Shown here: in pieces, positions 7,838 to 59,346 of the stretch
Layout of the letters: the number at the start of each line of letters is the position of its first letter
How positions within the stretch are numbered: position 1 is the first letter of the stretch
Assembly (NCBI GenBank): GCA_035569395.1
Contig: DATMNC010000088.1
Coordinates: 69,603 to 133,602 of the forward strand
Length of the DNA: 64,000 nucleotides
Source of the DNA: Thermoanaerobaculia bacterium
GTDB lineage: Bacteria > Acidobacteriota > Thermoanaerobaculia > Gp7-AA8
Direction of reading: 5' to 3'
The notes under the pieces: model-generated
Databases searched by the model: none
What the model was told of the DNA's origin: nothing
The model's input: only the letters and a program-made list of their open reading frames with translations
Program-made: the position numbers and the translations under genes

Positions 7838-7990
7838 GCGGTTGCGAGGTCGCGAGGTTACGCGGTCTCGCGGTTGCTTGGCTACTGGGTTACTGGGTTA
7901 CTTTTGGTAGGCGTGCTTAAATTGATCGGCAACCCTGCAACCAAGCAACCATCCACCGCGAGACCGCGCAACCCCGAGACCGCGCTGCCG
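7838..7990. repeat. Family-1 compound hairpin repeat (GCGGTCTCGCGGTTGC ... GCAACCCCGAGACCGCGC with nested GGGTTACTGGGTTAC / GCAACCAAGCAACC)
   Basis: Long inverted-repeat arms fill the gap between the membrane protein and ddl. The same arms recur at eight other loci. Confidence 0.7.
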
Positions 7991-10243: not shown

Positions 10244-10370
10244 GGGCTGGTTTGCTTCGTGCTGCGTTTCCCGCGTTGTCGTTGTCGGTCATCAGTTATC
10301 AATTCCGGATTCCAAGTCGCTACTAATCATCAACTGACAACCGATAACCGACAACGCGGCGAAGCCGCAG
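10244..10370. repeat. Family-2 hairpin repeat (GACAACGCGGCGAAGCCGCAG core)
   Basis: CGTTGTCGTTGTCGG on one side and CAACCGATAACCGACAACGCGGCGAAGCCGCAG on the other form inverted arms. The same core occurs at 18118 and 30838/30920. Confidence 0.65.
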
Positions 10371-13004: not shown

Positions 13005-13062
13005 CGGAGCGCGGATTATAAAGGTTGGTCGCTGAGTTGCTGGGTTGCTGAGTTGCCCAACC
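13005..13062. repeat. Family-1 short hairpin (GGTTGGTCGCTGAGTTGCTGGGTTGCTGAGTTGCCCAACC)
   Basis: GTTGCT-based palindromic element in the divergent valS/tsaD promoter gap. Confidence 0.6.
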
Positions 13063-25841: not shown

Positions 25842-25948
25842 CGCGGTTGCGTGGTCTGGGGGTTGCGCGGTCTCGCAGTGGTTCGATTTCAGCGGCGGCG
25901 TTTCGTTCACACACCGCGAGACCGCGCAACCCCGAGACCCCGAGACCC
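25842..25948. repeat. Family-1 hairpin repeat (GGTTGCGCGGTCTCGC ... CGCGAGACCGCGCAACCCCGAGACC)
   Basis: Inverted arms between glmS and alkA. Confidence 0.7.
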
Positions 25949-27183: not shown

Positions 27184-27280
27184 CTGACACGAGCTCGCCC
27201 TCTTGACACGCTATTGCATCAGAAAGCTCTCACCACAATCGGGACAGTCCGTCCAACCCTCACGACAAACCACGTGGCTT

Positions 27281-27610
27281 TCGCGATTACACGCTGTGTT
27301 GTAGCGATTGCACGCCGTACGGTCGCGGTTACACGACGTGCTATCGCGATTACACGACGTACTGTCGCGGTTACACGACGTGCAATCGCGATTACACGAC
27401 GTGTTGTCGCGATTGCATGCCGTACGGTCGCGATTGCACGCCGTGCTGTCGCGGTTACACACCGTGAGTCGCGATTGCACGCCGTGAGGTCGCGATTGCA
27501 TGACGTGCTGTCGCGGTTACACACCGTGTTGTCGCGATTATTCGCCGTTTTGTCGCGGTTACACGACGTTTGTCGTGATTGCACGACGTCTTGTCGCGGT
27601 TATCCACTGG
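27281..27610. repeat. Direct tandem array, about 16 copies of a 21-bp unit (consensus CGCGRTTRCACGMCGTGNTGT)
   Basis: Units phased at 27282, 27303, 27324, 27345, 27366, 27387, 27408, 27429, 27450, 27470, 27491, 27512, 27533, 27554, 27574 and 27595. No spacers. The array sits in the ogt/mnmA convergent gap. Confidence 0.9.
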
Positions 27611-29787: not shown

Positions 29788-29794
29788 GTGAACG

Positions 29795-29878
29795 TGGATT
29801 GGTAGATTAGTAGATCAGGCTGGCGGTAGGTTGCTTCTGATCTACTCATCCACTAATCCACTAATCTACTGATCCACT
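29795..29878. promoter_or_regulatory. AT-rich imperfect palindrome upstream of the CDF transporter gene
   Basis: GTGGATTGGTAGATTAGTAGATCAG / CTGATCTACTCATCCACTAATCCAC arms match at 20 of 25 positions with a 19-bp spacer, plus TAATCTACTGATCCAC. Low GC relative to the surrounding sequence. Confidence 0.45.
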
Positions 29879-30804: not shown

Positions 30805-30957
30805 CGCTGCGCCTGCGGCGCGTTCTCTGCGGCTTCGCCGCGTTGTCGGTTGTCTGCGCGCCGCGCGTGGTCTGTTGTTCACTCTTCGGTCTTGACCACG
30901 CGCGAAGCGCAATCAACTGACAACGCGGCGAAGCCGCAGACAACGCGCGCAGCGCAG
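30805..30957. repeat. Family-2 hairpin repeat (two CTGCGGCTTCGCCGCGTTGTC / GACAACGCGGCGAAGCCGCAG arms)
   Basis: Inverted arms at about 30835-30860 and 30915-30945, between convergent czcD and the mglA-like gene. Confidence 0.7.
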
Positions 30958-31938: not shown

Positions 31939-32146
31939 GGGGATCGTTAGCTTACTACGAGGTTGCGGGGTCTCGGGGTTGCGCGGTCTCGCGGGTGGAT
32001 CGGTTGCTGGGTTGCTGCGGTGGGAGATCCTATCGGTTCCCAATTACTGCCCGAAGCACTGAGCAACCCAGAAACCCAGCAACCACACACCGCGAAACCC
32101 GCGCAACCTCGAGACCCCGCAACCCCATCCGCGATATCCTTTCCCC
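31939..32146. repeat. Family-1 compound nested hairpin repeat (outer GGTTGCGGGGTCTCGGGGTTGCGCGGTCTCGCGGG..., inner GGTTGCTGGGTTGCTGCGG ... CTGAGCAACCCAGAAACCCAGCAACC)
   Basis: About 200 bp of nested inverted repeats in the divergent gap between the mglA-like gene and the aldolase gene. Confidence 0.7.
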
Positions 32147-34798: not shown

Positions 34799-35875
34799 TT
34801 ACCGCCGGCTCGGAGATGAGAGTTGTCCGTAGACACCGATCAACCTCTCCGCGGCCTGCTCATACCCAAAACGCTCCGACTGCTCGTACGTCCGGCGACG
34901 CAGCTCCACGATGTCACCGCGCGATACGGCGACCACCTTCGAGGCGGCCGCGTCAGGAGTCCCTGCATCCGCGATCAATGACGGCGCGAGATCGCCGAGC
35001 AGCGCTGTCATCCCCTCGATCGGGAACGTAACCGGTATGACGCCGCAGGCCATCGCCTCGAGCACGGCGCGGTGCCCCTCGTCGGAGCCGCGGGCGGTAA
35101 AAAGAAGGACGTCCGCGGCGCGGTAATGTTCGGCGAGCTCGTCCTCTTGATAGCCGGCCCAGATCACGTCGATGGCCAGATCGCGCGCGAGCACTTCGAG
35201 TGCCGAGCGATGCTCGCCGTGACCAACGATCATCAGACGCGCGTTGGCGATCTCCCGCCGTACGGCCGCGTAGGTTCGCAGCACCTCTTCGAAGCCACGG
35301 CCTTTCGAGAGCTTGCCGATGGCCAGCAATAGCAAGACGTCGGACCCGACGCCGTAGTGGGCGCGGACATCACGTCCGGCGGGGGTGAATTGACGCTGAT
35401 CGATCGGGGGCGGCGTAAACACCGGCGTGCGGTCTCGGATTGGCGAAGCATCGACGAACGAGTCGTTGACGACGCAGATGCCGTCCGCTCGGGCGATCAG
35501 CCATCGCGTGAGCGGATCGCCGCGCAGCACGCGCCGTGCGTGAAACGTTCGCACGATCGCGCTCCTCGTTCCCCGCACAGCGAATTGCGCCAGCCAATGA
35601 TCGTAAGTGAGATGGGCGTGGACGATGTCGAAGCGGTGATGGTCGATGAGCCGGCCGAGCGTGTCGATCGTGCGGGCAAAGGACAGGGGGTTCTGCGCTT
35701 TGGCGATGATGGGGTGCGTGAAGTCAAGGCGATCGATCTTCTTCTGCAGCTTATAGCCGCCGACATAGGCGTAATGTGCATCGATGCCCGCTTGGCGAAG
35801 CGCTTCGGCTTCGGCGAAGGCGAGAGCGGCGGCGCCGGTCCATCGGTTGCCGGCTGCAAGGTGAAGAACTTTCAT
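34799..35875 (-). CDS. Glycosyltransferase family 4 (GT-B)
   Basis: C-terminal EGHRAVLEAMACGVPV motif (E-X7-E region), 358 aa. Confidence 0.75.
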   Translation of the reverse strand: MKVLHLAAGNRWTGAAALAFAEAEALRQAGIDAHYAYVGGYKLQKKIDRLDFTHPIIAKAQNPLSFARTIDTLGRLIDHHRFDIVHAHLTYDHWLAQFAVRGTRSAIVRTFHARRVLRGDPLTRWLIARADGICVVNDSFVDASPIRDRTPVFTPPPIDQRQFTPAGRDVRAHYGVGSDVLLLLAIGKLSKGRGFEEVLRTYAAVRREIANARLMIVGHGEHRSALEVLARDLAIDVIWAGYQEDELAEHYRAADVLLFTARGSDEGHRAVLEAMACGVIPVTFPIEGMTALLGDLAPSLIADAGTPDAAASKVVAVSRGDIVELRRRTYEQSERFGYEQAAERLIGVYGQLSSPSRR

Positions 35876-36216: not shown

Positions 36217-37431
36217 GTGTTCCTCGCCCGACGTCTCGGCCTTCCTGAAGAGACGCCCCAGCCGATCGCGCTGGCGGTGCTCTTCTACGTCGGCCATCTC
36301 TTCTGCGCCGGCTGGGTCGCCTCGTCCGAGATCTTCGCGGTTTCGACGATTGCCACCGTCGGCTATCTCCTCTACCGGCGCGTGTTCACGGCGTCCTTTC
36401 ACATCCTCTACATTCCGCTGGCGCTCTACGGCCTCGACTCCACCATCTCGGCATTTGTTGCAGGCCGGCATATTCACTCGTTCGGCGAGGGAGCACTGTG
36501 GGGGAAAATACTGCTCTTTCCCGCGGCGCTGATCCTCTTCCGCAACGTCCCACGAAGCCGCGACGCGGCCATCAAGATGCTTCTCATCTTCGGCGTCTTC
36601 TCATCCGTGTATGGCTTTGTGCAGTATTTTGCGCTCACATCACATCACGATCTCGAGCATCGGATCACCGGCCCTTCGGCCCACGTGATGACTCTTTCCG
36701 GCCTGCTGCTACCGGTAGCTTTGGTTTTTCTCGTGCTCTGGATCTACGACATGCGCAATATATTGCTCGCGATCGGGGTCGTAACGACCCATTTCGCGCT
36801 GCTGCTCACGTTCACGCGCAGCATATGGCTCGGCTGGATCGTGGGGGTGGCGGTCCTCCTGGCGCTGAAATGGCCGAAGGCGCTGGCCTGGGCGGTCCCG
36901 GTGGGGATTCTCGTAATCAGTTTCGCGCCGCTGCCGTTTTTCAGCAGGGTCATTTCCAGCTTCGACGTCCGGCAATCGTCCAATCTCGATCGCATCCGAA
37001 TGGCCCAGGCCGGCATCGAGATCATCAAGGACTACCCGTTGTTCGGTGTGGGGCCGGCCAACGTCAAAGAGTTCTACCCGCTTTACCGCAAGCACGACGC
37101 ACCGCGCTTTCGTATCCCCCATCTTCACAACAACTTCATCCAGCTCTGGGCGGAGCGCGGCGTGCTTGCGCTTGTCGCCTACGTCTTCCTCCAAATCCTT
37201 TTCCTGCGTCAGTGTGGGCGGGCGTGGGGGGGGCCGGCGACAAAGTTCGCCGAGATCGGGGTCGCCGTCGCGGTCGGGTTGGCCTCCGCGGGACTGTTCG
37301 AGTTCAATTTCGGCGACACCGAGGTCTTCTGGATGTTGCTGGACGTGTTCGCCATCGTCACTGCCTTCATCGAACGGCCTCAGGCGTCGAATGAACCTCT
37401 CCCGGAGCCTGTTCTCGAAACAGGTCCGTAA
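36217..37431 (+). CDS. O-antigen ligase / Wzy_C family membrane protein
   Basis: About 10 TM helices; TFTRSIWLGW and HLHNNFIQLWAERG motifs. Confidence 0.65.
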   Translation: MFLARRLGLPEETPQPIALAVLFYVGHLFCAGWVASSEIFAVSTIATVGYLLYRRVFTASFHILYIPLALYGLDSTISAFVAGRHIHSFGEGALWGKILLFPAALILFRNVPRSRDAAIKMLLIFGVFSSVYGFVQYFALTSHHDLEHRITGPSAHVMTLSGLLLPVALVFLVLWIYDMRNILLAIGVVTTHFALLLTFTRSIWLGWIVGVAVLLALKWPKALAWAVPVGILVISFAPLPFFSRVISSFDVRQSSNLDRIRMAQAGIEIIKDYPLFGVGPANVKEFYPLYRKHDAPRFRIPHLHNNFIQLWAERGVLALVAYVFLQILFLRQCGRAWGGPATKFAEIGVAVAVGLASAGLFEFNFGDTEVFWMLLDVFAIVTAFIERPQASNEPLPEPVLETGP

Positions 37432-45116: not shown

Positions 45117-45440
45117 TTACTCGACACTGAATGTGTCCCCTCCGACCGAGATATCGACTGTCTGAGTGCTCGAGAGCGCATCGAGCGACGTGACCGGTAC
45201 GTCGCGGGATTGTTCGAGCCACTGTACGCCCAACGCTGCCACGAGGGCGAGGGTTGCCAGGGAGACGACTACAGGACGAAACCAGCGCGCCAGGACCTGG
45301 GCGATACCGGCCTGCGACTCCGCCGCGATCCGCTCGCGGACGCGGGCGGCGATGCGGGTGGCCATCATCTCGTCGGGCTCGAAGCGAAGTTGCCGTGCTT
45401 CGGGGCGAAGACGTTCCAGAAAGTCGTCGTTCTCAATCAT
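45117..45440 (-). CDS. Putative anti-sigma factor (small single-pass membrane protein)
   Basis: Overlaps the 3' end of the ECF sigma gene by 8 bp; single TM helix VVVSLATLALVAALGV. Confidence 0.45.
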   Translation of the reverse strand: MIENDDFLERLRPEARQLRFEPDEMMATRIAARVRERIAAESQAGIAQVLARWFRPVVVSLATLALVAALGVQWLEQSRDVPVTSLDALSSTQTVDISVGGDTFSVE

Positions 45441-46092
45441 TGCTGCCCCCGTGAAGGTCTGCCAGTTTTTCCTTCAGTTTTCCACGAGCGAGCGACAGAT
45501 GCGAGCGCACCGTCCCCTCGCTCAATCCCGTCATCACTGCAATCTCAGAGTGTCCGAATTCGTCGACCAGATACAAGCGTGCCACGATTCGCTGCATCTC
45601 AGGAAGCGATTGGATGCCTCGGTCGATCCGTTGGGCCAGCTCGTTCGCGATGGCCGGCAGGTCGGCCCGGTCGCGCCGCGCCGCCGGAGCGGCATCAGTA
45701 ATCTCCTCGTGCCGGAACCGTTTGCGATGTTTCATGACGTCGAGCGCCAGATTCGTCACGATACGGTAGATCCACGGTCCGAACGGCTCCCCGGTCTTGA
45801 ACCGCCCTACGTTCTCGAAGGCTTTGACGAACGCCTCCTGAGCCAGATCTTCGGCATCGGCGGCATTGCGAACCACTCCCCAGGCGATCGAGATGACCCG
45901 CTTGATGTACTTCGAAACCAGGTAGTCGTAGGACGAGGCATCACCGCTTTTGACGGCGGCGATGGCACGCGCTTCGATCGGGTCTTCGTTTATTGCGCTT
46001 CTCGTCTGCGCCCTCTTTGGTGAGAAAACCAGACGATCGAGCGCGAGGGAGCCGGTAGCGGATCCCTCGAACATCGACGTGGCGTCCATCAT
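45433..46092 (-). CDS. ECF-type RNA polymerase sigma factor
   Basis: Region 2 (AEDLAQEAFVKAF) and region 4 (GHSEIAVMTGLSEGTVRSHLSLARGKLK). Confidence 0.8.
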   Translation of the reverse strand: MMDATSMFEGSATGSLALDRLVFSPKRAQTRSAINEDPIEARAIAAVKSGDASSYDYLVSKYIKRVISIAWGVVRNAADAEDLAQEAFVKAFENVGRFKTGEPFGPWIYRIVTNLALDVMKHRKRFRHEEITDAAPAARRDRADLPAIANELAQRIDRGIQSLPEMQRIVARLYLVDEFGHSEIAVMTGLSEGTVRSHLSLARGKLKEKLADLHGGSND

Positions 46093-46096
46093 CTTC

Positions 46097-46579
46097 CTAC
46101 TTGTCGGCGCGCTTGGCCATCCGCTGTTGCAGGAAGTTTGACGCCTTGGATCGCTGTTCAGGCGTCAGCACGCTGAGGGCCTTCGACGCAGCCGTGAGCG
46201 CGTTCGCCTTGATCTGCCGCTCCGCGTCCGTTTGCTTGTCGAGCAGGGCCTGGGCCGCGGCCACGTCGTTCGGATTGGCAAGCAGCGCCTGCGCGATGGC
46301 CTGCCGCCCGTCACGAAGTGAGGCGCGATACGGCGCATTCAGCGCGCGCAGGTCGGTGAAGATCTTCTTGAGGTCGGCAGCCTGCTGGTCGGAAAGGCCG
46401 AGGGCGGCTTTGGCGCCGCGCAAATGACCGAACATCATCATGTCGCTTCCACCGCCGTGCATGCAGCCGCCCGCAAAGCCCGCGCCGCGCATGTGCATGT
46501 GCTGCGCAACCGCAAACGGAACGGCGAGCACGACGATGAGAATAGCCGCCGCCGAAAAAATGAGTGTGCGCTTCTTCAT
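46097..46579 (-). CDS. Spy/CpxP-family periplasmic LTXXQ protein (paralog)
   Basis: Signal peptide MKKRTLIFSAAAILIVVLAVPFAVAQ, Met/His-rich segment HMHMRGAGFAGGCMHGGGSDMMMFGH, then LSDQQAADLKKI and LTPEQRSKASNF. Confidence 0.55.
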   Translation of the reverse strand: MKKRTLIFSAAAILIVVLAVPFAVAQHMHMRGAGFAGGCMHGGGSDMMMFGHLRGAKAALGLSDQQAADLKKIFTDLRALNAPYRASLRDGRQAIAQALLANPNDVAAAQALLDKQTDAERQIKANALTAASKALSVLTPEQRSKASNFLQQRMAKRADK

Positions 46580-46673
46580 GGGGTCTCCCTTGTTTGTGTT
46601 GCTGTTGACGAAGAGGTTACGACGATACGGAGGGAACGTTGAACATATAATCAGGGTAACTCGATCCGCTCCT

Positions 46674-47960
46674 ATGCGCCCCATTCTCGCAGCCATGGCT
46701 ATCGCGTTCGCGAGCCTCAGCCCCGCGTTCGCGCAGTCGCTTGTCTGCCCTCCGGTGGCCGCCGTCGCCGGCCGTCCCTGTGAGACATTCCACTATCACG
46801 TGCAGCTGTTCCGGCCGGATACACGCGAGTTCTTCGAGCTCTACGGAATCAACCAATTCGCATCGATGGGAGCCTGCGAACGCGCCCGCGACACCCAATT
46901 CAAACGTAATATGGCCGTCGTCGAGTTCATGCGCACGCAGCGTCGTGATTGGTGGCAGGCAGATAAATTCGGGCCGTGTCATTGCGACATGACCATCGAG
47001 CGGGCCAGCCCGAATGCGCTGACCGACGCCGCCCGGGCGCTGCAGGTTCATGACGCTGAAGAGATCCGCCAGCGCGTCCGCGAGCGCCTTCTGGACGCAA
47101 AGGCTCTGCCGGACAGCGAAGTCGTTCGCAATCTCGCACCGCCGCTCAGCACCACGCCACTGATCGGCGGACCAAAGCTCGTCCCGCTGCCGCCGCCGGC
47201 TGCGGTCACGACGGTCTCGAATTCTCCCGACGATCTGCGAATCACGAAGGCGGTCGACACGACGTCTCCGTCGATGACGTCTCTCGACCTTCCTCTGGTC
47301 GATGTCCCGCTGCCGGGTATCACAGCGCCTGCCGAGGTTGTTGCCCCGACACCGGCGGCAACCGTGCCGCAAGCTGCCGCTCCGGCACCAGCACCTGCGC
47401 CTGCACCCGCGCCCGAAACGCTGCCAGCACCGCGACCAGCGCCCACTCCTGTTCCCACGGAGCAGGTCGCGGTCCTCGCTGACGAGCCTGAGCTTCCTTC
47501 GCCGGAAGACGTTGCCGACGCCTTCGTCAGCTACGAATCGCAGCGCATCCAGAACGTGCTGAAAGTCAGCAGCAACATCGGCGACGAGTCGGTCAAGGCC
47601 CAGGTTCTCGACGCCTGTACGCAGCGGATCCAGCTTCTCTCGAATCTTCGATCGATCATCGTCGGCTCCGGCGCGAGGAGCCGCCTGGTGGCCGCCGCGA
47701 ACATGGCCAGGAAAGAGAACGAGCGGCTGGCTGTCGTGGCGAAGCTGTTTGGCAGCGATGTGCCGCCGCATTGGGCGCCCAAGGATGCCGCCGACGTAAT
47801 CTTCGATCCAGGCGTTACCGATGCCGAGCAGGTGTTGCGGGACAATCGCTCCTCCGAGCAACAGAAGCGGCACGCGCTCTATGCGCTGCTGGCGACGTCA
47901 TCGCCGACCGAGCAGCAGCAGTTGTGGCTGAACTCCGTGATCGAGGGACTGTTGAAATGA
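46674..47960 (+). CDS. Secreted hypothetical protein with Pro/Ala-rich linker
   Basis: Signal peptide MRPILAAMAIAFASLSPAFAQ and a central PAPAPAPAPAPETLPAPRPAPTPVP linker. No known domain recognised. Confidence 0.5.
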   Translation: MRPILAAMAIAFASLSPAFAQSLVCPPVAAVAGRPCETFHYHVQLFRPDTREFFELYGINQFASMGACERARDTQFKRNMAVVEFMRTQRRDWWQADKFGPCHCDMTIERASPNALTDAARALQVHDAEEIRQRVRERLLDAKALPDSEVVRNLAPPLSTTPLIGGPKLVPLPPPAAVTTVSNSPDDLRITKAVDTTSPSMTSLDLPLVDVPLPGITAPAEVVAPTPAATVPQAAAPAPAPAPAPAPETLPAPRPAPTPVPTEQVAVLADEPELPSPEDVADAFVSYESQRIQNVLKVSSNIGDESVKAQVLDACTQRIQLLSNLRSIIVGSGARSRLVAAANMARKENERLAVVAKLFGSDVPPHWAPKDAADVIFDPGVTDAEQVLRDNRSSEQQKRHALYALLATSSPTEQQQLWLNSVIEGLLK

Positions 47961-49672
47961 AAGCAGAAGGCAGAAGGCGGAAGGCAGAGGTGGGAATCGC
48001 GATCGCGGCTAACTTCTGCCTTCTGCTTTCCGCCGTCTGCCTTTCGGCGCAGACACCCGCACCGGCTCCGCAACCAGTCGCCGCCTCGGCGGCGATGCCG
48101 CCGAGCGAGGAATTCGTGAAGGCCGTCTACTTCGGAAAAAAGTTCGCCGACATGAAGGACTATGCCGCCGCCTATCAGCAGTTCGCGAAGGCGGATGCGC
48201 TGCAACCCGACGTGCAGGGTGTGCTCTACAACATGGGCGTGCTTCTGGCCCGCGCCGGCCGCTTTTCCGAGGCACAGGCGAAAGTCGATCGTTACAACCA
48301 GCTCTTTCCCGCAGGGGCGGAGAAGCCGCTCGTCACCAAGCTGCAGCTCGACCTGGAGTTCGAAAGCGAGTTGCAGAAGAAGAGGCAGGCGGACGAGGAG
48401 TACACCGCCATCTTCACGCGCGGCCGTTTTCTGTATGGCAAAGGCGATCTCGTCGCCGCGCTGAAGCTCTTTCAGGATGCCGAACAGCAGCGCCCCACCG
48501 ATCCGGCCGCCGTCTTCAACCAGGGGGTCGTCTACGAGAAGCTTGGCGATCTGACCAAGGCATCGGAGCGCTTTCATCGTTACGAGGAGCTGGAGCCCGA
48601 GGCGAACGCGAAGTCCTCCATCGACCAGCGCATCCTTGGCATCGAAAGCGAGATGTCGGACATGAAGACGAAGATCGTCTGCCCATTCTGCGGTTGGCGT
48701 CTGCCGATCGGAGCGATCTGGTGTCCTCACTGCTGGCACGGTCCATATCTCACGTCATCCTCGCTCTGGAATTCGCGCCCGTGTACCGACGGATCGACCG
48801 CGACGCGGGCGACGTACTACGCCGACAACCGTTTCGCGAAGAACGAATCGCTACCGTGTCTCTTCAACGGCACGATGATCGAAGCGCTCCGCTACACGCC
48901 GGCGCGGCAGCGGCAGGTGCAGGAGGCACGCAAAGCCGAGGGCTGGACGTACAGCGGAGATGTCATCCAGTCATGGCACGACCGGCAGGGCAACGAGATC
49001 CGCTACGTTCAGGGCGCCGACTATCTCGAAAAGATCGTTTCATCGAGCGGCGGCGACGTTCTCCTCTTCGCGGCGCACCGTGCGCCTGACGGCGCCATCT
49101 GGCTCCTCGATCGGGAAGACATGGTCATCGACGGGCAGAAGTACACCTCGCACTACGCGTTCGACACCCAGAACCGCATCGCCCAGCAAGAGGTCGTCTA
49201 TCAGAACGCCAACGGCTGCAACGACGTCATCTCCATGACCGCCGTGCCGATGTACGCGAGCGATCTCCTCATTGGAATGAAACTGCGCGGCGGCTATAGC
49301 GGCACCGTGGTTGAGGGATCGCCGCGCGTCGATTGGGAAGCGAATGTCGTCTACACCTACGACGCCGACGCGCGCCAGACGAAGGAAGAGCTGGCCCTCA
49401 GCTCGATGACGAAGACCTACACGGATAAGCCCTACGGCTTCGAGCGCCAGGAGATTGCGATGCTCTATCCGGACATGCGCGTCCGCAAGCCGATCGAGAA
49501 AGTCCTGAGCATGGGAGACCGCTGCGGCCTCGCCGGCACGACGGTCCTCAGCAACCCCGTCGATCTCCGCCCGATCTACGCCTTCTCTCCAAATCTGGCG
49601 ATCGCTCTCTCAAGCGGCGTCACCCGCGCGACGGTGAGCTTCACCTATCCGGATTCGTACAAGGTTCGCTAA
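47957..49672 (+). CDS. Secreted protein with N-terminal TPR-like repeats, an internal zinc-ribbon (CPFCGW...CPHCWHG) and an unknown C-terminal domain
   Basis: ATGA overlap with the upstream gene; signal peptide MKAEGRRRKAEVGIAIAANFCLLLSAVCLSAQ. Confidence 0.5.
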   Translation: MKAEGRRRKAEVGIAIAANFCLLLSAVCLSAQTPAPAPQPVAASAAMPPSEEFVKAVYFGKKFADMKDYAAAYQQFAKADALQPDVQGVLYNMGVLLARAGRFSEAQAKVDRYNQLFPAGAEKPLVTKLQLDLEFESELQKKRQADEEYTAIFTRGRFLYGKGDLVAALKLFQDAEQQRPTDPAAVFNQGVVYEKLGDLTKASERFHRYEELEPEANAKSSIDQRILGIESEMSDMKTKIVCPFCGWRLPIGAIWCPHCWHGPYLTSSSLWNSRPCTDGSTATRATYYADNRFAKNESLPCLFNGTMIEALRYTPARQRQVQEARKAEGWTYSGDVIQSWHDRQGNEIRYVQGADYLEKIVSSSGGDVLLFAAHRAPDGAIWLLDREDMVIDGQKYTSHYAFDTQNRIAQQEVVYQNANGCNDVISMTAVPMYASDLLIGMKLRGGYSGTVVEGSPRVDWEANVVYTYDADARQTKEELALSSMTKTYTDKPYGFERQEIAMLYPDMRVRKPIEKVLSMGDRCGLAGTTVLSNPVDLRPIYAFSPNLAIALSSGVTRATVSFTYPDSYKVR

Positions 49673-49685
49673 CGCGCGGTTATCA

Positions 49686-50399
49686 ATGACCTGGTATCGG
49701 GAATGGTTCGGCGAGGAGTACCTCGAGCTCTACGCGCATCGCGACGAGCATGAGGCTCGGCATCAGGTGGCGTTCTTCCGCGAGCGCTTTGGCGACGTCG
49801 ATGGCGTCATCCTCGACCTTGCCTGCGGTACAGGGCGTCATCTCACGGAGTTGAACGGCGAAGGGTTTGCCGCGGCCGGCTGCGATCTTTCCTTTACCCT
49901 TCTCCGCACCGGTATCGACGAATACGGTCCGCTGCCTGTGGCGCGCGCTGACATGCGCTCGCTTCCGTTCTGCAGCAATAGCTTCGGCGGACTGGTCAAC
50001 TTCTTCACGAGCTTCGGCTACTTCGCCACGGAGGAGGAGAACCTTGATGTCGTGCGCGAGATGGCGCGTGTGCTGCGTCCCGGCGGCGTTTTCCTCTTCG
50101 ACTATCTCAATGTCGATCGGGAGCTCGACAAGCTCGTGGAGCGCGAGGCGCTGGAAACGCCTCGCGGTCGCGTGGAGATCGAGCGGTGGTTCGATCCACG
50201 TGACCGTTCGTTCAACAAACGGATCACGATCGGTCAAAAACGTTTTCTGGAGCGCGTTCGCGGATACGATCTCAACGAGATCTCGACGATGTTCAACTCT
50301 TCCGGCCTTTCGATCGACCAAGCGTTCGGCGACTTTCAGGGGGCACCCTTCGACGTTGCCTCACCGCGCCTCATCCTCGTCGGGAGCCGGACACGATGA
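49686..50399 (+). CDS. Class I SAM-dependent methyltransferase (Methyltransf_11-like); candidate bacillithiol N-methyltransferase
   Basis: VILDLACGTGRH motif I, then LRPGGVFLFD. Its stop overlaps the bshC start by 4 bp. Confidence 0.75.
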   Translation: MTWYREWFGEEYLELYAHRDEHEARHQVAFFRERFGDVDGVILDLACGTGRHLTELNGEGFAAAGCDLSFTLLRTGIDEYGPLPVARADMRSLPFCSNSFGGLVNFFTSFGYFATEEENLDVVREMARVLRPGGVFLFDYLNVDRELDKLVEREALETPRGRVEIERWFDPRDRSFNKRITIGQKRFLERVRGYDLNEISTMFNSSGLSIDQAFGDFQGAPFDVASPRLILVGSRTR

Positions 50400-51922
50400 C
50401 CAGCGTCACATCCGAGGCCGCCTGTCTGCGCATTCCGCTTGCGACCTACGGCCTGAACCGATTCACGCTCGACTGGATCGCAGGCGATCCCAATGCAACG
50501 CAGTTCCTTCCACGCAACAACGAAGCGCGGACTCTCCGCCCGGACCCCCACGACAATTCTCTCGCGGATGCCCTGATCGCCTCGAATCACCAATGGGGCC
50601 GCGACGTCGTTGATGAAGTTCGCCGCTGGTCGCGTGGCGAGACGTTCACGGTCATCGCCGGACAACAGGTTGGCTTCGCCGGAGGGCCGATTTACACACT
50701 GGCCAAGCTGGCGGGCATGCTGAAGCTGAAGCGCGACAACGAAGCGCGAGGCATCCCGACGACGGTTTTCTTTTGGCTGGCCACGGAAGACCACGACTTC
50801 GCCGAGGTGGCCACGCTGGCGCTGCCGAAGCGCGATGCCAAACAGCAGCTTGATCTCACGACTTTCCTCGACCGGCGCCCCGGTTCGAAGATGGCCGTTG
50901 GCGCTCTGCCAATCCCCGAGGAGCTGACACACGCGCTCATCGAATACCTCAGCATCCCGCGTCCAAACTGGCTGCGCGAGGGGATCACGTTTCGTGATTC
51001 GTTCGCGGAGTTGATCACGGCCGCGGTGGATGGGAAGTTCATCCTGGTCGACGCCCTCCTTCCGGAGCTGCGCCGCGCAGGAGCGCCATTGTTCGACAGC
51101 ATCCTCACGAACTGGGACGGCATCCAGCGCGAGCTCGATCTCCGAGCGGCTTCGCTGATGAGCGCCGGTTACGAGCCGCAGGTCGTTCCGCGTCCGGGCG
51201 AGCCGCATACCTTGCTGTTCGAGCTCGACGAGCAGGGACGCCGACACCTGATCGAGACCCCGCGGCCGCTGGCATCACCGGAACGAACGTCGACGTCGGC
51301 GCTGACGCGCCCGCTGCTCCAGGATTTCGTGCTCCGGCCCGACCTCTTTGTCGGCGGTCCCTCCGAGGTCGCGTATTACGCGCAGATCGCGCCGCTCCAC
51401 GATCTCCTCGGCGTTGCCATGCCGCGCGTGGCGCTGCGAGCACACGAGATGCTCGCGCCGAAGCGCGTCGTGCGAACCGTAAGCCGCTACGACATCAAGC
51501 CGGAGGAGATCTTCGCCGGCACCGACGCGCTGCTGGCTACGCGCGAGCCGGCAGGCGTCGCCGAGGTACAGACGATTGCCGGGAACGCACGCCGGGAGTT
51601 GACGGAACAGATCACCAGCATCGGCGAGCTTGCACTCCCCGCCGAGCATGCGTTGGCGCGCGCCATCAATCGCTCGATCGGCCATATCGAATACCACTTC
51701 GAGAAACTGACCGCGCGCGCCATCCGCGGATTGGTCCGTAAGGACCGCGAGCGCTACGCAGCCGTCCGCGAGCTCGTCTCCACGCTGGTCCCCGACGGCT
51801 CGCCCCAGGATCGCGTGACCGGCTGGTTCGGATATTGGCAGGAGTATGGACAACATCTCATCGATCGCATGATCGAGGAAGCGGAGCAGGATGAGGATGT
51901 GTGCAAGGTGGTGAGCTTGTGA
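50396..51922 (+). CDS. bshC: Putative bacillithiol biosynthesis cysteine-adding enzyme BshC
   Basis: 508 aa, no signal peptide or TM. Translationally coupled to bshB and bshA downstream. The family call rests mainly on context, not motif certainty. Confidence 0.5.
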   Translation: MTSVTSEAACLRIPLATYGLNRFTLDWIAGDPNATQFLPRNNEARTLRPDPHDNSLADALIASNHQWGRDVVDEVRRWSRGETFTVIAGQQVGFAGGPIYTLAKLAGMLKLKRDNEARGIPTTVFFWLATEDHDFAEVATLALPKRDAKQQLDLTTFLDRRPGSKMAVGALPIPEELTHALIEYLSIPRPNWLREGITFRDSFAELITAAVDGKFILVDALLPELRRAGAPLFDSILTNWDGIQRELDLRAASLMSAGYEPQVVPRPGEPHTLLFELDEQGRRHLIETPRPLASPERTSTSALTRPLLQDFVLRPDLFVGGPSEVAYYAQIAPLHDLLGVAMPRVALRAHEMLAPKRVVRTVSRYDIKPEEIFAGTDALLATREPAGVAEVQTIAGNARRELTEQITSIGELALPAEHALARAINRSIGHIEYHFEKLTARAIRGLVRKDRERYAAVRELVSTLVPDGSPQDRVTGWFGYWQEYGQHLIDRMIEEAEQDEDVCKVVSL

Positions 51923-52650
51923 TCGCGGGACTGGAACCGGTCGACCTGATTTTCTTCGGCGCGCATCCCGATGACATCGAGCTGTCGTGCGGTGGCACAA
52001 TCGTGAAGGCGGTCAAAGACGGCCTGCGCGTAGGAATCATCGAACTGACGCGCGGCGAGCTGGGGACTCGGGGCACGCCGAAGGTCCGGCGCCGCGAGGC
52101 GCTCAAAGCCGCGGGCATCCTGGGGGCGCGTTTCCGCGTGCAGCTCGACTTCGGTGATGGCAACATGCGTACGGGCCGCGAGGAGGAACTGCAGCTCATC
52201 GAGATCGTCCGCCGTTGCCGTCCTCATCTCGTCTTCAGCATGTGGCCCGATGACCGGCATCCCGATCACATCCGTACGGGCAAGCTGGTGACGGAAGCGT
52301 CGTTTTACTCCGGTTTGCGGGCGCTCGAGACCGGGCTGCCGGCCCACCGGCCGCAGGCGACAATCTATTACCCGCAGAACTATCTCGTGACACCGAGTTT
52401 TGTCGTCGACGTGACAAAAACGTGGAAGACGAAAATGCGCGCCATCGCCGCGTTCAAGTCGCAGTTCTACGATCCGAAGTCGAAAGAGCCGCCGACGTTC
52501 ATCGCGGACAAGAAGTTCCTCGAGATGATCGAAGCGCGCGGTCGTCACTTCGGCGCCCTGATCGGCGTCGAGTACGGCGAAGCCTTCATGACCAAACAGC
52601 CGCCGAAGGTCGACGACATGATCGCGGCGTATAGCGGGAGAGAGCCTTGA
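51901..52650 (+). CDS. bshB: N-acetyl-alpha-D-glucosaminyl L-malate deacetylase (PIG-L/LmbE family)
   Basis: LIFFGAHPDDIELSCGGTI zinc-site motif; HPDH second motif. A GTG at 51919 is an alternative start. Confidence 0.75.
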   Translation: MQGGELVIAGLEPVDLIFFGAHPDDIELSCGGTIVKAVKDGLRVGIIELTRGELGTRGTPKVRRREALKAAGILGARFRVQLDFGDGNMRTGREEELQLIEIVRRCRPHLVFSMWPDDRHPDHIRTGKLVTEASFYSGLRALETGLPAHRPQATIYYPQNYLVTPSFVVDVTKTWKTKMRAIAAFKSQFYDPKSKEPPTFIADKKFLEMIEARGRHFGALIGVEYGEAFMTKQPPKVDDMIAAYSGREP

Positions 52651-52725
52651 AGGAGGTTGCTGGGTTGCTGAGTTGCTAGGTTGCTCAGCAACCCAGCGAC
52701 CTGGCAACCTAGCAACTTAGCAACC
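52651..52725. repeat. Family-1 hairpin (GGTTGCTGGGTTGCTGAGTTGCTAGGTTGCTCAGCAACCCAGCGACCTGGCAACCTAGCAACTTAGCAACC)
   Basis: GTTGCT/AGCAAC inverted arms fill the bshB-bshA gap. Confidence 0.7.
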
Positions 52726-53844
52726 ATGAGAATCGGCATCACCTGCTACCCCACCTTCGGCGGCTCCGGCGTCGTGGCCACGGAGCTCGGTGTCGCGCTT
52801 GCGCGCGCCGGGGACGATGTTCATTTCATCAGTTACGCGATGCCGTCACGACTCAATGTCCTGCACGAACGCGTCCGTTTTCACGAGGTTACCGTTACGC
52901 CGTATCCACTCTTCGATCCGTATCCGCCGTACACACTGGCGCTGGCAACGAAGATGGCCGAGGTGGCTGTATACGAGAAGCTCGACATCCTCCACGTCCA
53001 CTACGCCATCCCGCACGCCATCAGCGCCCATCTGGCGCGCGAGATCGTCGGATCGAAGGACCTTCGGTTCATCACGACACTCCATGGCACCGACATCACT
53101 CTCGTCGGACGCGATCCCAGCTATCTGCCGATCACCAGGTTCGGCATCGAAGTCTCTGACGGCGTGACGGCGGTGTCGCAGTGGCTGCGCGACGAGACGG
53201 CGAAGAACTTCGCGACCAAGAAAGAGATCGACGTCATTCCCAACTTCGTCGACCCCACGCGCTTTCGCAAGCACCAAAGCCCCCTCTCGAATCTGTTTTT
53301 CTCATCCGGCGAAAAGCTGCTCTGCCATGTGTCGAACTTCCGGCCGGTGAAGCGGATCATGGACGTGCTTGCGGTTTTCGAACGCGTGTCACGCGTGGTG
53401 CCGAGCCGCCTGGTCATGATCGGCGACGGTCCCGATCGCTCCGTCGCTGAGGCCTTCTGCCGCGACCACCACCTGCGCGAGCAGGTCTTTTTCCTCGGCA
53501 ACGTCCCGAACCTCGAGGAAGTCGTCGGCGCCGCCGATGTCTTCCTCCTCCCTTCCGATGCCGAATCCTTCGGCATGTCCGCCCTCGAGGCGATGGCCTC
53601 GGAAGTCCCCGTCATCGGTACCCGTGCCGGCGGATTGCCCGAAGTCGTCGTCGAAGGAGAAACCGGCTACCTTCTGCCGGTCGGCGACGTAGAAGGGATG
53701 GCCGAGCGCGCGATCGAAATCCTCTCAAACCCCGACCTCCAACGCCGCCTCGGCCGAAACGGACGTGACCTCGCGGAGGGGAAGTTCAACGTGAATCGGG
53801 TGGTACCGAAGTATCGGGAGTTCTACGAGAGGGTGATTGGATAG
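52726..53844 (+). CDS. bshA: N-acetyl-alpha-D-glucosaminyl L-malate synthase (GT4)
   Basis: MRIGITCYPTFGGSGVVATELG N-terminus is characteristic of BshA; C-terminal GT4 E-X7-E region (SFGMSALEAMASEVPVIGT). Confidence 0.8.
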   Translation: MRIGITCYPTFGGSGVVATELGVALARAGDDVHFISYAMPSRLNVLHERVRFHEVTVTPYPLFDPYPPYTLALATKMAEVAVYEKLDILHVHYAIPHAISAHLAREIVGSKDLRFITTLHGTDITLVGRDPSYLPITRFGIEVSDGVTAVSQWLRDETAKNFATKKEIDVIPNFVDPTRFRKHQSPLSNLFFSSGEKLLCHVSNFRPVKRIMDVLAVFERVSRVVPSRLVMIGDGPDRSVAEAFCRDHHLREQVFFLGNVPNLEEVVGAADVFLLPSDAESFGMSALEAMASEVPVIGTRAGGLPEVVVEGETGYLLPVGDVEGMAERAIEILSNPDLQRRLGRNGRDLAEGKFNVNRVVPKYREFYERVIG

Positions 53845-53888
53845 GTGGGAACGACCAATGGCGCCGCAGGGTTAGAATAGACACGATC

Positions 53889-54104
53889 ATGTCCGGCAAA
53901 GTCATCATCACCACTCCGTTTCCGACTCCTGAGCAGGTGGCTGCGTATTACAAAATTCCTGCGAAGCGTGTTGCCGAGCTGCGGCAAATGATGGATGACA
54001 TTCGCGCGGAGGAAGCGTCGAAGGGAAACCGCAAGAAGAACGGCCGGCAAGGCTCTAGCAGAAAATCTTCGGCTCGGCGCAAAGTCACCAGCTCAAAGCG
54101 GTGA
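53889..54104 (+). CDS. Small hypothetical protein with basic C-terminus
   Basis: 71-aa ORF with acceptable codon bias. No homolog recognised. Confidence 0.3.
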   Translation: MSGKVIITTPFPTPEQVAAYYKIPAKRVAELRQMMDDIRAEEASKGNRKKNGRQGSSRKSSARRKVTSSKR

Positions 54105-54487
54105 AGTCGTACAACGGTGGCCGCAGCAACACCGGAGCCGCCGATCGCCTTCATCAACGTTCCCTATTCAAAACGATACGAGTGCGTATACCTCGCCTTC
54201 ATCGCGGGCGTTTCAGCGTACGGACTCGTTCCTGCGGCAGCTGTTCGCGATCCATCGAGCCGCTTTCAACTCGAACGTATCTACGAGCTGATCGCGGCGG
54301 CGAAGTATTCATTTCACGACCTCTCATCTACTCACTCGATCTCTTCGACACGAAGCCGTTCGCCGAATTGATGTTTGTCGCCAGCGAAGCATCACGGCGC
54401 TACCTGCCATCGCTCGCCCAGTAGCCTGCTCGGCTCAGGCTGAAAATCCCGCCGCTTGCACTCGTGGCAAAGGAGTGACTACGAGTT

Positions 54488-54937
54488 TCACGATTCCTCC
54501 CTCGCCAACGTCCCCGAGAAAATCGCTTGAGGAGCTCGCTTGAGAATCTCGTTCCTGGCGATGGCATAGCCGAGAATAGCGTCCACCAGCATCCGCCGTC
54601 CGTCGTGGGAGAAGAGGATCAGCACCTTTCGCTTGATCTCGCGGACCTCGACGATGTCTTCCCATCGCATCCATTTGCCGCGACGGCCGAACTGCTTCAG
54701 AACCCAGTTCTCGTACATCAGGCCGTCGTCGCTTAAGTAGATGTGATCGCCGTACTGCACGGCGGCAGCGGCGAGCGTGCCGAGGAAAAGAAGAATGAGC
54801 GCTACGATGGGCAGCGCCTCGATCTCTTTTTCACCTTTCGAGAGGTAGTCAAACAACAGCGCCGCCGAAGCAAACGAAGCCGCGCAGGAGATCAGCCGCG
54901 CCACCGGTGTGCGGTCGAATTTGAGGATGCGTGACAT
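54488..54937 (-). CDS. Membrane protein with bacterial PH-like (YdbT/DUF304-like) domain
   Basis: Two TM helices then a soluble domain (WMRWEDIVEVREIKRKVLILFSHDGRRM). Start placed at MSRILKFDR. Confidence 0.45.
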   Translation of the reverse strand: MSRILKFDRTPVARLISCAASFASAALLFDYLSKGEKEIEALPIVALILLFLGTLAAAAVQYGDHIYLSDDGLMYENWVLKQFGRRGKWMRWEDIVEVREIKRKVLILFSHDGRRMLVDAILGYAIARNEILKRAPQAIFSGTLAREES

Positions 54938-55062
54938 GGGGGAAGTATAGGTTTCGCGGTCTCGGGTTGGGGTTTCAGGGTTGCCAACCTTGCAACCTTG
55001 CAACCAGCACCGCAACACACCGAGCGACCCCGACCCGCAACCTCGATTACAATCCCCGCCCC
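54938..55062. repeat. Family-1 hairpin (GGTTTCGCGGTCTCGGGTTGGGGTTTCAGGGTTGCCAACCTTGCAACC...CCCGACCCGCAACC)
   Basis: GGTTGC-core inverted arms in the divergent gap upstream of proS. Confidence 0.6.
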
Positions 55063-56775
55063 ATGCGCTGGAGCCAATACTTCATCAATACGTTGCGCGA
55101 AGTTCCCGCCGACGCCGACGTCATCAGTCAGAAACTGATGATGCGCGCCGGCATGATCCGCAAGGTCGCGGCCGGCATCTACACGTACCTGCCCCTCGGC
55201 CTTCGCTCGATGCAGAAACTCGAAGCGATCGTGCGCGAGGAGATGGGCCGCGCCGGGGCGGTCGAGTTGTCGATGCCGACGATCCAGCCGGCAGAACTGT
55301 GGATGGAATCGAAGCGCTGGGAGCGCTACGGCAGGGAGTTGCTGCGCGTCAAAGACCGGCATGAGCGCGACTTTGTCTACGCCCCAACCGCCGAGGAAGT
55401 CATCACCGACACCGTCCGCGACGCCATCAACTCCTATCGCCTCCTGCCTGTGAATCTCTATCAGATCCAGACGAAGTTCCGCGACGAAGTGCGGCCGCGC
55501 TTCGGCCTCATGCGCGGGCGCGAGTTCGTCATGAAGGATGCCTACTCGTTCCACGCCACGCGCGAGTCGCTCGATGAGACGTACGAGAAGATGCGTGTGG
55601 CCTACACCGCTATTTTCAACCGCTGCGCGCTCGAGCACGTCGCGGTCGACGCCGATACCGGCAACATCGGCGGCTCCGCGTCACACGAGTTCATGGTGCT
55701 GGCGCAGTCGGGCGAGGACGCCGTGGTGTCGTGCCCGAACTGCAGCTACGGCGCGAACATCGAGAAGGCGACGTCGAAGTTCTTTCTCGACGAGATCGAA
55801 CCTGCATTGATGACCGAGCTCGCGCCGATCCACACGCCGGGCACACAGTCGATCGACGATGTTGGCAAGTTCCTCGGCAAACCGACCTCGGAGTTGGTCA
55901 AGACACTCGTCTTCGATACGGACGACGGCTGCGTGATGGTGCTCGTACGCGGCGACCGCGAAGGGAACGAGGTCAAGATCAAGAACCACCTCGGCGCGCA
56001 GTTCCTGGAGATGATGCCGGACACCCGTTTCGAAGACGCTACCGGCGGTCCGGTCGGTTACTGCGGTCCTGTCGGCACGAAGGCCAAGCGCGTTCTCGCC
56101 GATATCTCGCTCAAGGGACAGGTGAACTGGGTCGTCGGCGGCAACAAGCGCGACACGCATCTCACCGGAGCGAATCCCGGCCGCGATTTCCCGGAGCCGG
56201 AGTATGGCGATTTCACCACCGTCTTCGCCGGTGACCCCTGCCCGCGCTGCGCGACAAGTCTTCAAATCCACCGCGGCATCGAAGTCGGCCACGTCTTCAA
56301 GCTCGGAACGAAATACTCAGACCCGATGAATTGCACGTTTCTCGATGAGAAGGGATCCCGCCAGCCGATGATCATGGGCTGCTACGGCCTCGGCATCGGA
56401 CGCACCGTCGCCGCCGCAATCGAGCAGAGCCATGACGACGACGGCATCATCTGGCCGATGCCGATCGCGCCGTTCGAGGTCGTTGTGACACAGATCGGGA
56501 AGGAAGAGATCGTCCGCACAACCGCCGACGACATCTACCGGCAGCTACGCGACGCCGGCATCGACGCAATCCTCGACGATCGCGACGAACGCCCGGGCGT
56601 AAAGTTCAAGGACGCCGACCTGATCGGCTTCCCCCTCCGTATCGGCATCGGCGCCAAGAGCCTCGCCAACGGCCAGATCGAGTGGAGCTTTCGCAAGGAT
56701 CGAGCGAAACAGCTCGGTGCGGCAGCGGAAGTAGTTGCGCGGGTGATCGACGAAGTGCGCAAGGCACGGGTGTAG
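55063..56775 (+). CDS. proS: Proline--tRNA ligase (bacterial type with editing domain)
   Basis: MRWSQYFINTLREVPADAD start, class II motifs, about 570 aa. Confidence 0.9.
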   Translation: MRWSQYFINTLREVPADADVISQKLMMRAGMIRKVAAGIYTYLPLGLRSMQKLEAIVREEMGRAGAVELSMPTIQPAELWMESKRWERYGRELLRVKDRHERDFVYAPTAEEVITDTVRDAINSYRLLPVNLYQIQTKFRDEVRPRFGLMRGREFVMKDAYSFHATRESLDETYEKMRVAYTAIFNRCALEHVAVDADTGNIGGSASHEFMVLAQSGEDAVVSCPNCSYGANIEKATSKFFLDEIEPALMTELAPIHTPGTQSIDDVGKFLGKPTSELVKTLVFDTDDGCVMVLVRGDREGNEVKIKNHLGAQFLEMMPDTRFEDATGGPVGYCGPVGTKAKRVLADISLKGQVNWVVGGNKRDTHLTGANPGRDFPEPEYGDFTTVFAGDPCPRCATSLQIHRGIEVGHVFKLGTKYSDPMNCTFLDEKGSRQPMIMGCYGLGIGRTVAAAIEQSHDDDGIIWPMPIAPFEVVVTQIGKEEIVRTTADDIYRQLRDAGIDAILDDRDERPGVKFKDADLIGFPLRIGIGAKSLANGQIEWSFRKDRAKQLGAAAEVVARVIDEVRKARV

Positions 56776-59215: not shown

Positions 59216-59346
59216 TTGTTTTCTTTAGGATCCTTGGGTTACTGAGTTGCTGATGTTGCTGAGTTGCTAAACAAGGCACTGATTGGCTGAGCAACCGATG
59301 AAACCCAGCAACCCAGCAACCCTGAAACTCAGCAACCCCTAAACCG
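59216..59346. repeat. Family-1 hairpin (GGGTTACTGAGTTGCTGATGTTGCTGAGTTGCT ... AGCAACCGATGAAACCCAGCAACCCAGCAACCCTGAAACTCAGCAACC)
   Basis: Inverted GTTGCT/AGCAAC arms between lon and clpX. Confidence 0.7.

Follow-up and report, generated by a model that had tools for sequence, protein, structure and literature searches.

A contiguous nmbA-bshC-bshB-bshA block as a probable N-methyl-bacillithiol biosynthetic gene cluster in an uncultured bacterium of the class Thermoanaerobaculia

We examined a 64,000-nt stretch of contig DATMNC010000088.1 (hereafter, the window), which derives from the metagenome-assembled genome (MAG) of an uncultured bacterium of the class Thermoanaerobaculia (Acidobacteriota), and found that positions 49686-53844 carry four intact, co-directional genes on the + strand in the order nmbA-bshC-bshB-bshA. 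We consider that this block is very probably the gene cluster for the biosynthesis of N-methyl-bacillithiol (N-Me-BSH), the antioxidant thiol that was discovered, together with the methyltransferase NmbA, in Chlorobaculum tepidum (Hiras et al. 2018, PMC6282198; Hammerstad et al. 2025, PMC12719100, PDB 9RI2). The identities of the genes rest on profile matches, on a sequence match to a solved structure and on synteny across phyla, whereas the activities of the enzymes and the thiol that they would make are predicted from homology with the established pathway. By that homology, BshA would join UDP-GlcNAc (GlcNAc, N-acetylglucosamine) with L-malate to give GlcNAc-malate, BshB would remove the acetyl group from this product, BshC would add cysteine to form bacillithiol (BSH), and NmbA would methylate the amino group of the bacillithiol cysteine, using S-adenosylmethionine (SAM). 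The genes follow one another in the opposite order to these reactions.

The first gene, nmbA (49686-50399, + strand, like the other three), encodes a 237-aa protein of the NmbA family (bacillithiol cysteine-N-methyltransferases), a class I SAM-dependent methyltransferase, and is followed by bshC (50396-51922), which encodes the 508-aa cysteine-adding enzyme of bacillithiol biosynthesis. The third, bshB (51901-52650), encodes a BshB1-type GlcNAc-malate deacetylase of 249 aa if translation starts at GTG 51901, or of 243 aa if it starts at GTG 51919, and the fourth, bshA (52726-53844), encodes a 372-aa N-acetyl-alpha-D-glucosaminyl L-malate synthase of glycosyltransferase family 4 (GT4) from ATG 52726. 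An earlier note on this DNA, made from the sequence alone, had described a 4-bp overlap of the ATGA type between the methyltransferase gene and bshC, and this can be read directly at 50396-50399; through it, nmbA and bshC are probably translationally coupled. The same note had given overlaps of 4 bp and 22 bp for the block. We find that bshC and bshB overlap by 22 bp with GTG 51901, or by 4 bp (GTGA) with the in-frame GTG 51919, but that bshB and bshA do not overlap, being separated by a 75-nt spacer (52651-52725) that contains a repeat hairpin (~52655-52725, + strand, 8-nt units, folded as RNA). The open reading frame (ORF) of bshA opens at TTG 52681, which was rejected as the start because the BshA family model aligns only from residue 16, that is, from ATG 52726, the methionine of MRIGITCY. 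All four genes have a gene-like GC content by codon position, with values at the third position of 0.74-0.79. The same gene set is called on an identical contig from an ENA metagenome, where bshA is also 372 aa long, and on a contig from JGI. The nearest protein matches share up to 98% identity and come, in the naming of NCBI, from Thermoanaerobaculia bacterium MAGs, and in a distance tree the window methyltransferase groups with loci of Thermoanaerobaculia and Acidobacteriota.

What identifies the methyltransferase as NmbA? First, in a phmmer search against 177,635 distinct PDB sequences, its top match was 9RI2_A, the C. tepidum enzyme (CtNmbA, CT1040), with 104.8 bits (E 4.4e-29) and an alignment of query residues 2-232 to chain residues 15-258, which is full length and includes the cap region; the runner-up, DesVI (3BXO), reached only 41.8 bits (E 7.6e-10), about 63 bits and some 20 orders of magnitude below CtNmbA. 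The earlier note had proposed the NmbA assignment and had named clustering with UbiE or ribosomal methyltransferases as the outcome that would speak against it; the PDB search bears out the assignment, and such clustering was not seen. Second, in a pairwise BLASTP comparison, the window enzyme and CtNmbA share 33% identity over residues 3-232 of 237 (97% coverage, E 4e-36). This agrees with the published definition of an ortholog of CT1040, namely E <= 1e-20, identity > 25%, coverage > 80% and similar length (PMC12719100), the lengths here being 237 and 266 aa and the E-values coming from search spaces smaller than RefSeq. Third, motif I of the window enzyme, ILDLACGTG (residues 42-50), is the AxGxG variant of the form (V/I)LD(I/L)AxGxG that is described for NmbA, together with acidic residues in motifs II and III (PMC12719100). 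In an alignment of 62 diverse family members that includes CtNmbA, 16 columns are invariant, D67 is invariant and D89 nearly so, and Y112/F113 of the window enzyme (in FTSFGYF) align with Y134/F135 of CtNmbA (SSFGYF), the aromatic pair proposed to hold the SAM adenine (PMC12719100). No other ORF of the window matches CtNmbA. The matches of the 237-aa methyltransferase in Pfam and NCBIfam are all to generic methyltransferase models, including weak UbiE/MenG matches of 21-48 bits that lie far under the cut-offs, because neither library has an NmbA model; the cut-off of no NCBIfam family is even approached. As for the distance from enzymes of known activity, CtNmbA and the NmbA of Paenibacillus polymyxa both methylate BSH in vitro (PMC12719100), and the window enzyme is 33% identical to CtNmbA and 34-39% identical to the Paenibacillus orthologs, which are themselves 33-38% identical to CtNmbA.

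The three bsh genes can be identified in a similar way, by family matches far stronger than chance would give. The 508-aa ORF, which the earlier note had taken for bshC from its position and size, is indeed BshC: its sole NCBIfam family is TIGR03998 (232.4 bits, E 1.2e-68), both Pfam domains, the N-terminal Rossmann-like PF10079 (134.6 bits) and the C-terminal coiled-coil PF24850 (47.9 bits), are above their gathering thresholds, and the sole PDB match is Bacillus subtilis BshC (4WBD, E 1.9e-26), in an alignment that keeps the blocks GQQxG..GP.YT, FW.A.EDHD and RPL.Q.F....F..GP.E..Y. The adjacency of bshB and bshA that the note had reported also stands. BshB matches TIGR04001 with 276.4 bits (cut-off 182.5) as well as the PIG-L family PF02585, and its translation carries the metal-site motifs FFGAHPDD and RHPDH; BshA, whose translation contains the N-terminus MRIGITCYPTFGGSGVV, matches TIGR03999 with 515.4 bits (cut-off 273.7) over model positions 1-374 of 375. 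A GT4 gene elsewhere in the window (34799-35875, - strand) was considered as a second bshA and set aside as a generic glycosyltransferase, given just 58 bits against the BshA model (cut-off 274); it adjoins an ORF (36217-37431) with a weak match to the IctB family of putative bicarbonate transporters (49.5 bits, cut-off 366). No further bacillithiol-related gene was found among the 30 other window proteins scanned against NCBIfam.

Is this arrangement peculiar to the window? A scan with an NmbA-family profile, using one genome per GTDB species, gave 80 loci, which were searched with the BshC, BshB and BshA proteins of the window; 72 of them, from other species and with at least 1.8 kb of downstream sequence, were informative. 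The methyltransferase gene is immediately followed by bsh genes at 26 of these 72 loci, in at least six phyla, and it lies directly upstream of bshC at 25. The complete order nmbA-bshC-bshB-bshA occurs at 11 loci (three Thermoanaerobaculia, three other Acidobacteriota, two Planctomycetota, one Anaerolineae of the Chloroflexota, one Fibrobacterales and one 'Hatepunaea'), and nmbA-bshC alone at another 11, all from Gemmatimonadota/Longimicrobiales; nmbA-bshC-bshB occurs at two (Hydrogenedentota and an unclassified bacterium), nmbA-bshC-bshA at one (Eisenbacteria) and nmbA-bshA at one (Planctomycetota). At the remaining 46 loci, from Bacteroidota, Paenibacillus, Holophagae, Ignavibacteria and Ktedonobacter, nmbA is unlinked. 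A start codon that would give the 4-bp nmbA/bshC overlap is available at 14 of the 25 loci with bshC downstream, the 4-bp bshC/bshB pattern is available at 8 of 13 related loci examined, and a 4-bp bshB/bshA overlap is possible at 6 of 10 related loci with both genes. In an all-against-all BLASTP comparison of 30 linked loci, the only genes shared across phyla were these four and their antisense shadow ORFs, and no fifth conserved gene, such as one for a bacillithiol disulfide reductase or a bacilliredoxin, was detected across phyla. The Gemmatimonadota/Longimicrobiales nmbA-bshC pairs (loci L008, L010, L012-L014, L023, L025, L031, L041, L070 and L076), which have no bshB or bshA nearby, stand in a conserved housekeeping setting, with lpxB, lpxK and a SPOUT methyltransferase gene (PF02590) upstream and murJ downstream.

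The two proteins also occur as a single polypeptide. In an exhaustive search of cluster representatives, which returned about 440 NmbA-family clusters at E <= 1e-30, one representative, 807 aa long, proved to combine an NmbA-like domain at its N-terminus with BshC at its C-terminus. Three such fusions, diverged from one another (P0135, P0271 and P0272; 807-820 aa, 68-72% mutual identity) come from three separate data sources (ENA, Logan and JGI), and one of them precedes bshB and bshA (locus L082, fusion at 83-2506). The fusions share the gene order of the window, and their methyltransferase domain is 45% identical to the window enzyme, which, in contrast, is a protein separate from BshC, encoded with a 4-bp overlap. 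The nearest BshC relatives of the fusions are named Planctomycetes or Planctomycetota. Because nmbA lies directly upstream of bshC at so many of the surveyed loci, usually with a possible 4-bp overlap, and because of the three fusions, we tentatively suggest that NmbA and BshC may work as a physical pair, although we hold this to be unlikely. If it were true, the methyltransferase might take bacillithiol straight from BshC, and the coupled or fused enzymes could allow an in vitro study of the BshC reaction and of its activated-cysteine donor; for no BshC has the addition of cysteine to GlcN-malate so far been reconstituted in vitro (PMC5790435). NmbA-family domains have other fusion partners, too, in the family representatives P0221, P0242 and P0206, none of which is in the window: a VTT/DedA membrane domain (protein of 486 aa), a HAD phosphatase (466 aa) and, placed in front of the NmbA-family domain, a second methyltransferase domain (519 aa). 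These other fusions suggest that some family members may have other partners or substrates.

Several observations weigh against the interpretation of the block as an N-Me-BSH cluster, in respect of its enzymes, its product or its unity. The score of BshC lies slightly below the curated TIGR03998 cut-off of 265.8 bits, which is an annotation threshold and no biochemical feature, and the window protein is only 24-29% identical to the BshC proteins of the related loci; BshC diverges quickly. The AlphaFold model of the methyltransferase is only moderately confident (predicted local distance difference test 73), with four strands after beta5 and a low-confidence N-terminal segment. Foldseek ranked 9RI2 first by E-value (1.6e-15) but with a template-modelling score of 0.61, no better than that of CypM or CcbJ, so that NmbA was not told apart from other methyltransferases that have a four-strand cap; the structure therefore adds consistency only. 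The four-stranded beta Cap domain of NmbA has a 'molecular basket' topology specific to this enzyme, and AlphaFold mispredicts the cap even for CtNmbA itself, according to its authors (PMC12719100). Thermoanaerobaculum aquaticum, a cultured relative, is listed as BSH-only in the RefSeq survey (PMC12719100). Finally, the hairpin in front of bshA, with a minimum free energy of -51.6 kcal/mol, could attenuate or uncouple the expression of bshA, and the gene for a tetratricopeptide repeat (TPR) protein upstream ends only 13 nt before nmbA, so that the transcription unit may exceed four genes.

The last two points bear on whether the four genes form one operon. We infer that they are probably co-transcribed, because they lie on the same strand, partly overlap, lack terminator-like sites between them and keep a conserved order, the bshB-bshA hairpin being a caveat. 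A somewhat unlikely alternative is that the genes are as we describe them but do not constitute a single four-gene operon, either because bshA is a separate unit behind the hairpin or because the unit extends upstream to the TPR gene and to the gene for a 428-aa protein that precedes it. The 75-nt spacer, whose stem runs up to the ATG of bshA, would suit the first version; the absence of a T-run after the stem, from which we conclude that the hairpin is no canonical intrinsic terminator, and the lack of a promoter-like site in the block argue against it. Terminator-like sites in the scanned block did not exceed those in shuffled sequences and none was convincing, and a sigma-70 promoter scan of 46000-55200 gave no site, although such a scan says little for an acidobacterium. 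In favor of the second version, the 428-aa and TPR genes overlap each other by ATGA, and locus L083, an 86%-identical relative, has the same six-gene layout, including both of them. In L083, however, the spacer between the TPR gene and nmbA is 105 nt long and holds a repeat hairpin, so that the coupling of these two genes is not conserved, and at all more distant loci the 428-aa/TPR pair is missing while the four-gene core is kept. We therefore rejected the pair, present only in near relatives, as part of the conserved module.

The bshB-bshA hairpin consists of four copies of GGTTGCTN followed by four of NAGCAACC (8-nt units), ending one base before the bshA ATG, and its RNA folds with z = -7.8, no shuffled sequence being as good. 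It appears to be a repeat-derived insertion into a junction that would allow an overlap in most relatives. Directly 5′ of it lies an AGGAGG (52651-52656), and directly 3′ of it lies the bshA ATG (52726); folding of the stem would juxtapose the two, and we speculate that this might be a structure-assisted Shine-Dalgarno arrangement. The AGGAGG is not kept in L083, in which hairpins occupy three spacers, 7895-8000 (TPR-nmbA), 10283-10460 (bshC-bshB) and 11166-11322 (bshB-bshA), each with a different inverted repeat, the last consisting of GGTCTCGC units instead of the GGTTGCTN of the window. The site of the hairpin is thus kept, whereas its sequence turns over.

If the enzymes are those of bacillithiol synthesis, does the methyltransferase act on the finished thiol? 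A second alternative, which we judge quite improbable, is that a bacillithiol derivative is made but that the window enzyme differs from CtNmbA in its substrate or in the atom methylated, acting, for example, on an intermediate, on cysteine before its ligation, by dimethylation, or by S- or O-methylation. The identity of just 33-39% to the characterized NmbA enzymes leaves room for such a difference, both assayed enzymes come from genomes in which nmbA is unlinked and none from a locus with bshC, the tight coupling or fusion to BshC would also fit an enzyme that acts at or before the BshC step, and the predicted cap-domain structure does not discriminate. On the other hand, the alignment with CtNmbA covers the cap region, the 16 invariant columns are the same in linked and unlinked members, and the two kinds of member do not form separate subfamilies but are mixed with each other, in the tree as in the score against CtNmbA. 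Furthermore, N-methyl-cysteine was never detected in C. tepidum (PMC6282198), and NmbA methylates BSH itself in vitro (PMC12719100). A third explanation, that the methyltransferase is an unrelated housekeeping enzyme of the UbiE/MenG kind or similar and only a chance neighbor of a plain bshCBA operon, would suit its generic library matches but is very improbable in view of the wide gap between CtNmbA and any other solved methyltransferase, the adjacency to bsh genes in at least six phyla and as gene fusions, and the 4-bp overlap at the junction with bshC.

How does the block compare with known systems? C. tepidum has the same four enzyme families (BshA CT0548, BshB CT1419, BshC CT1558 and NmbA CT1040; PMC6282198; PMC12719100), and its NmbA shares with the window enzyme the AxGxG variant of motif I, the Tyr-Phe pair and the structural neighbors CypM, CcbJ, 3D2L and 1WZN. 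In C. tepidum, however, a green sulfur bacterium, the locus tags show the four genes scattered over the chromosome, whereas in the window, from a high-GC acidobacterium, they are contiguous and partly overlapping. B. subtilis has orthologs of BshA, BshB1 and BshC, with bshB and bshA as neighbors, but it has no nmbA, and its bshC lies with panE, apart from bshA and bshB1, which are in an operon that contains mgsA (PMC5790435). In other genomes, only an 'occasional co-localization' of bshC and bshA has been noted (review, PMC5790435).

As for distribution, N-Me-BSH was predicted earlier for about one-third of BSH-positive Acidobacteria (Hiras et al., PMC6282198), whereas in the later RefSeq survey the only Acidobacteriota with NmbA are four Chloracidobacterium species, and no complete pathway is listed in Chloroflexota or Fibrobacterota (PMC12719100). 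Chloracidobacterium and T. aquaticum belong to the same phylum as the window and were assigned by the same kind of inference from gene content. The class Thermoanaerobaculia is represented in that survey by a single species without NmbA (PMC12719100), in contrast to the window lineage and the MAGs with loci L002, L004, L009 and L083, which have nmbA in a bsh cluster. The terms 'operon' and 'gene cluster' are applied to these genes neither in PMC6282198 nor in PMC12719100, and no description of a clustering of nmbA with bsh genes was found in the literature searched, the coverage of which was incomplete, so that this is absence of evidence only. In Dataset 1 of PMC12719100, NmbA and BshC of Candidatus Palauibacter have consecutive RefSeq accessions (WP_419858893/894), as do BshA, BshB and BshC of Vulgatibacter (WP_373045413-415). 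This is a hint that linkage of the kind seen here is present, without comment, in the published tables, the adjacency of accessions being only suggestive.

The surroundings of the block are of a different character. Upstream on the same strand (46674-49672) are the genes for the 428-aa protein, which has no family match, and for the TPR protein, which contains a CxxC...CxxC zinc-ribbon-like motif; divergent from the cluster (45433-46696, - strand) are small ORFs and the genes for an extracytoplasmic function (ECF) sigma factor and for two periplasmic proteins of the LTXXQ/Metal_resist (Spy/CpxP-like) type. This arrangement is kept in L083 and not beyond. The remaining genes of the window are housekeeping genes: hemA, hflX, ddl, birA, valS, lexA, glmS, mnmA, purE, proS and lon. 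Many intergenic spacers contain hairpins made from inverted arrays of 7-8-nt tandem units, several of which end at a start codon (2345-2443, 7838-7991, 10280-10356, 13028-13057, 25845-25947, 29794-29878, 30818-30948, 31958-32126, 47959-48043, ~52655-52725 and 59238-59345). The unit varies by site (GGTTGCTN, GGTCTCGC/GGTTGCGC, GATTAGTA, GAAGGCA and CAACCGA), and the GTTGCT unit family is matched 16 times in the window, where chance would give 0.15 matches. The hairpins resemble a family of dispersed elements like the repetitive extragenic palindromic (REP) elements, with an unusual periodic build. At gathering thresholds, no known Rfam family was found in the whole window, and therefore no riboswitch or leader explains the spacers. 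One hairpin, of heptamer repeats, forms the first ~90 nt of the TPR gene (47957-48043), where one arm codes for the charged n-region (KAEGRRRKAE) of an apparent signal peptide and the other for its hydrophobic h-region (FCLLLSAVCL). A further intergenic array, between a 175-aa ORF and mnmA (27277-27602), repeats the 21-nt unit GCTGTCGCGATTACACGCCGT in tandem ~15.6 times and has a higher-order period of 104 nt; because this array has no spacers, it is not CRISPR-like.

Earlier work has already reported the pathway and the enzyme and has predicted N-Me-BSH for some Acidobacteria (PMC6282198; PMC12719100), and the pathway itself is unchanged by our finding. What appear to be undescribed are the operon layout, the NmbA-BshC fusions, the Thermoanaerobaculia member and the broader spread over phyla in MAGs. 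Being compact, the four-gene cassette is suited to heterologous expression, and the fusions could be a handle on the BshC reaction. With the window, the predicted use of N-methyl-bacillithiol extends to the class Thermoanaerobaculia, and with the surrounding scan to MAGs of Chloroflexota, Fibrobacterota, Hydrogenedentota and Eisenbacteria. The function of the NmbA family has so far been based on two assayed enzymes and one knockout; the recurrent order nmbA-bshC(-bshB-bshA), together with the fusions, provides genomic-context evidence that the family as a whole acts on bacillithiol.

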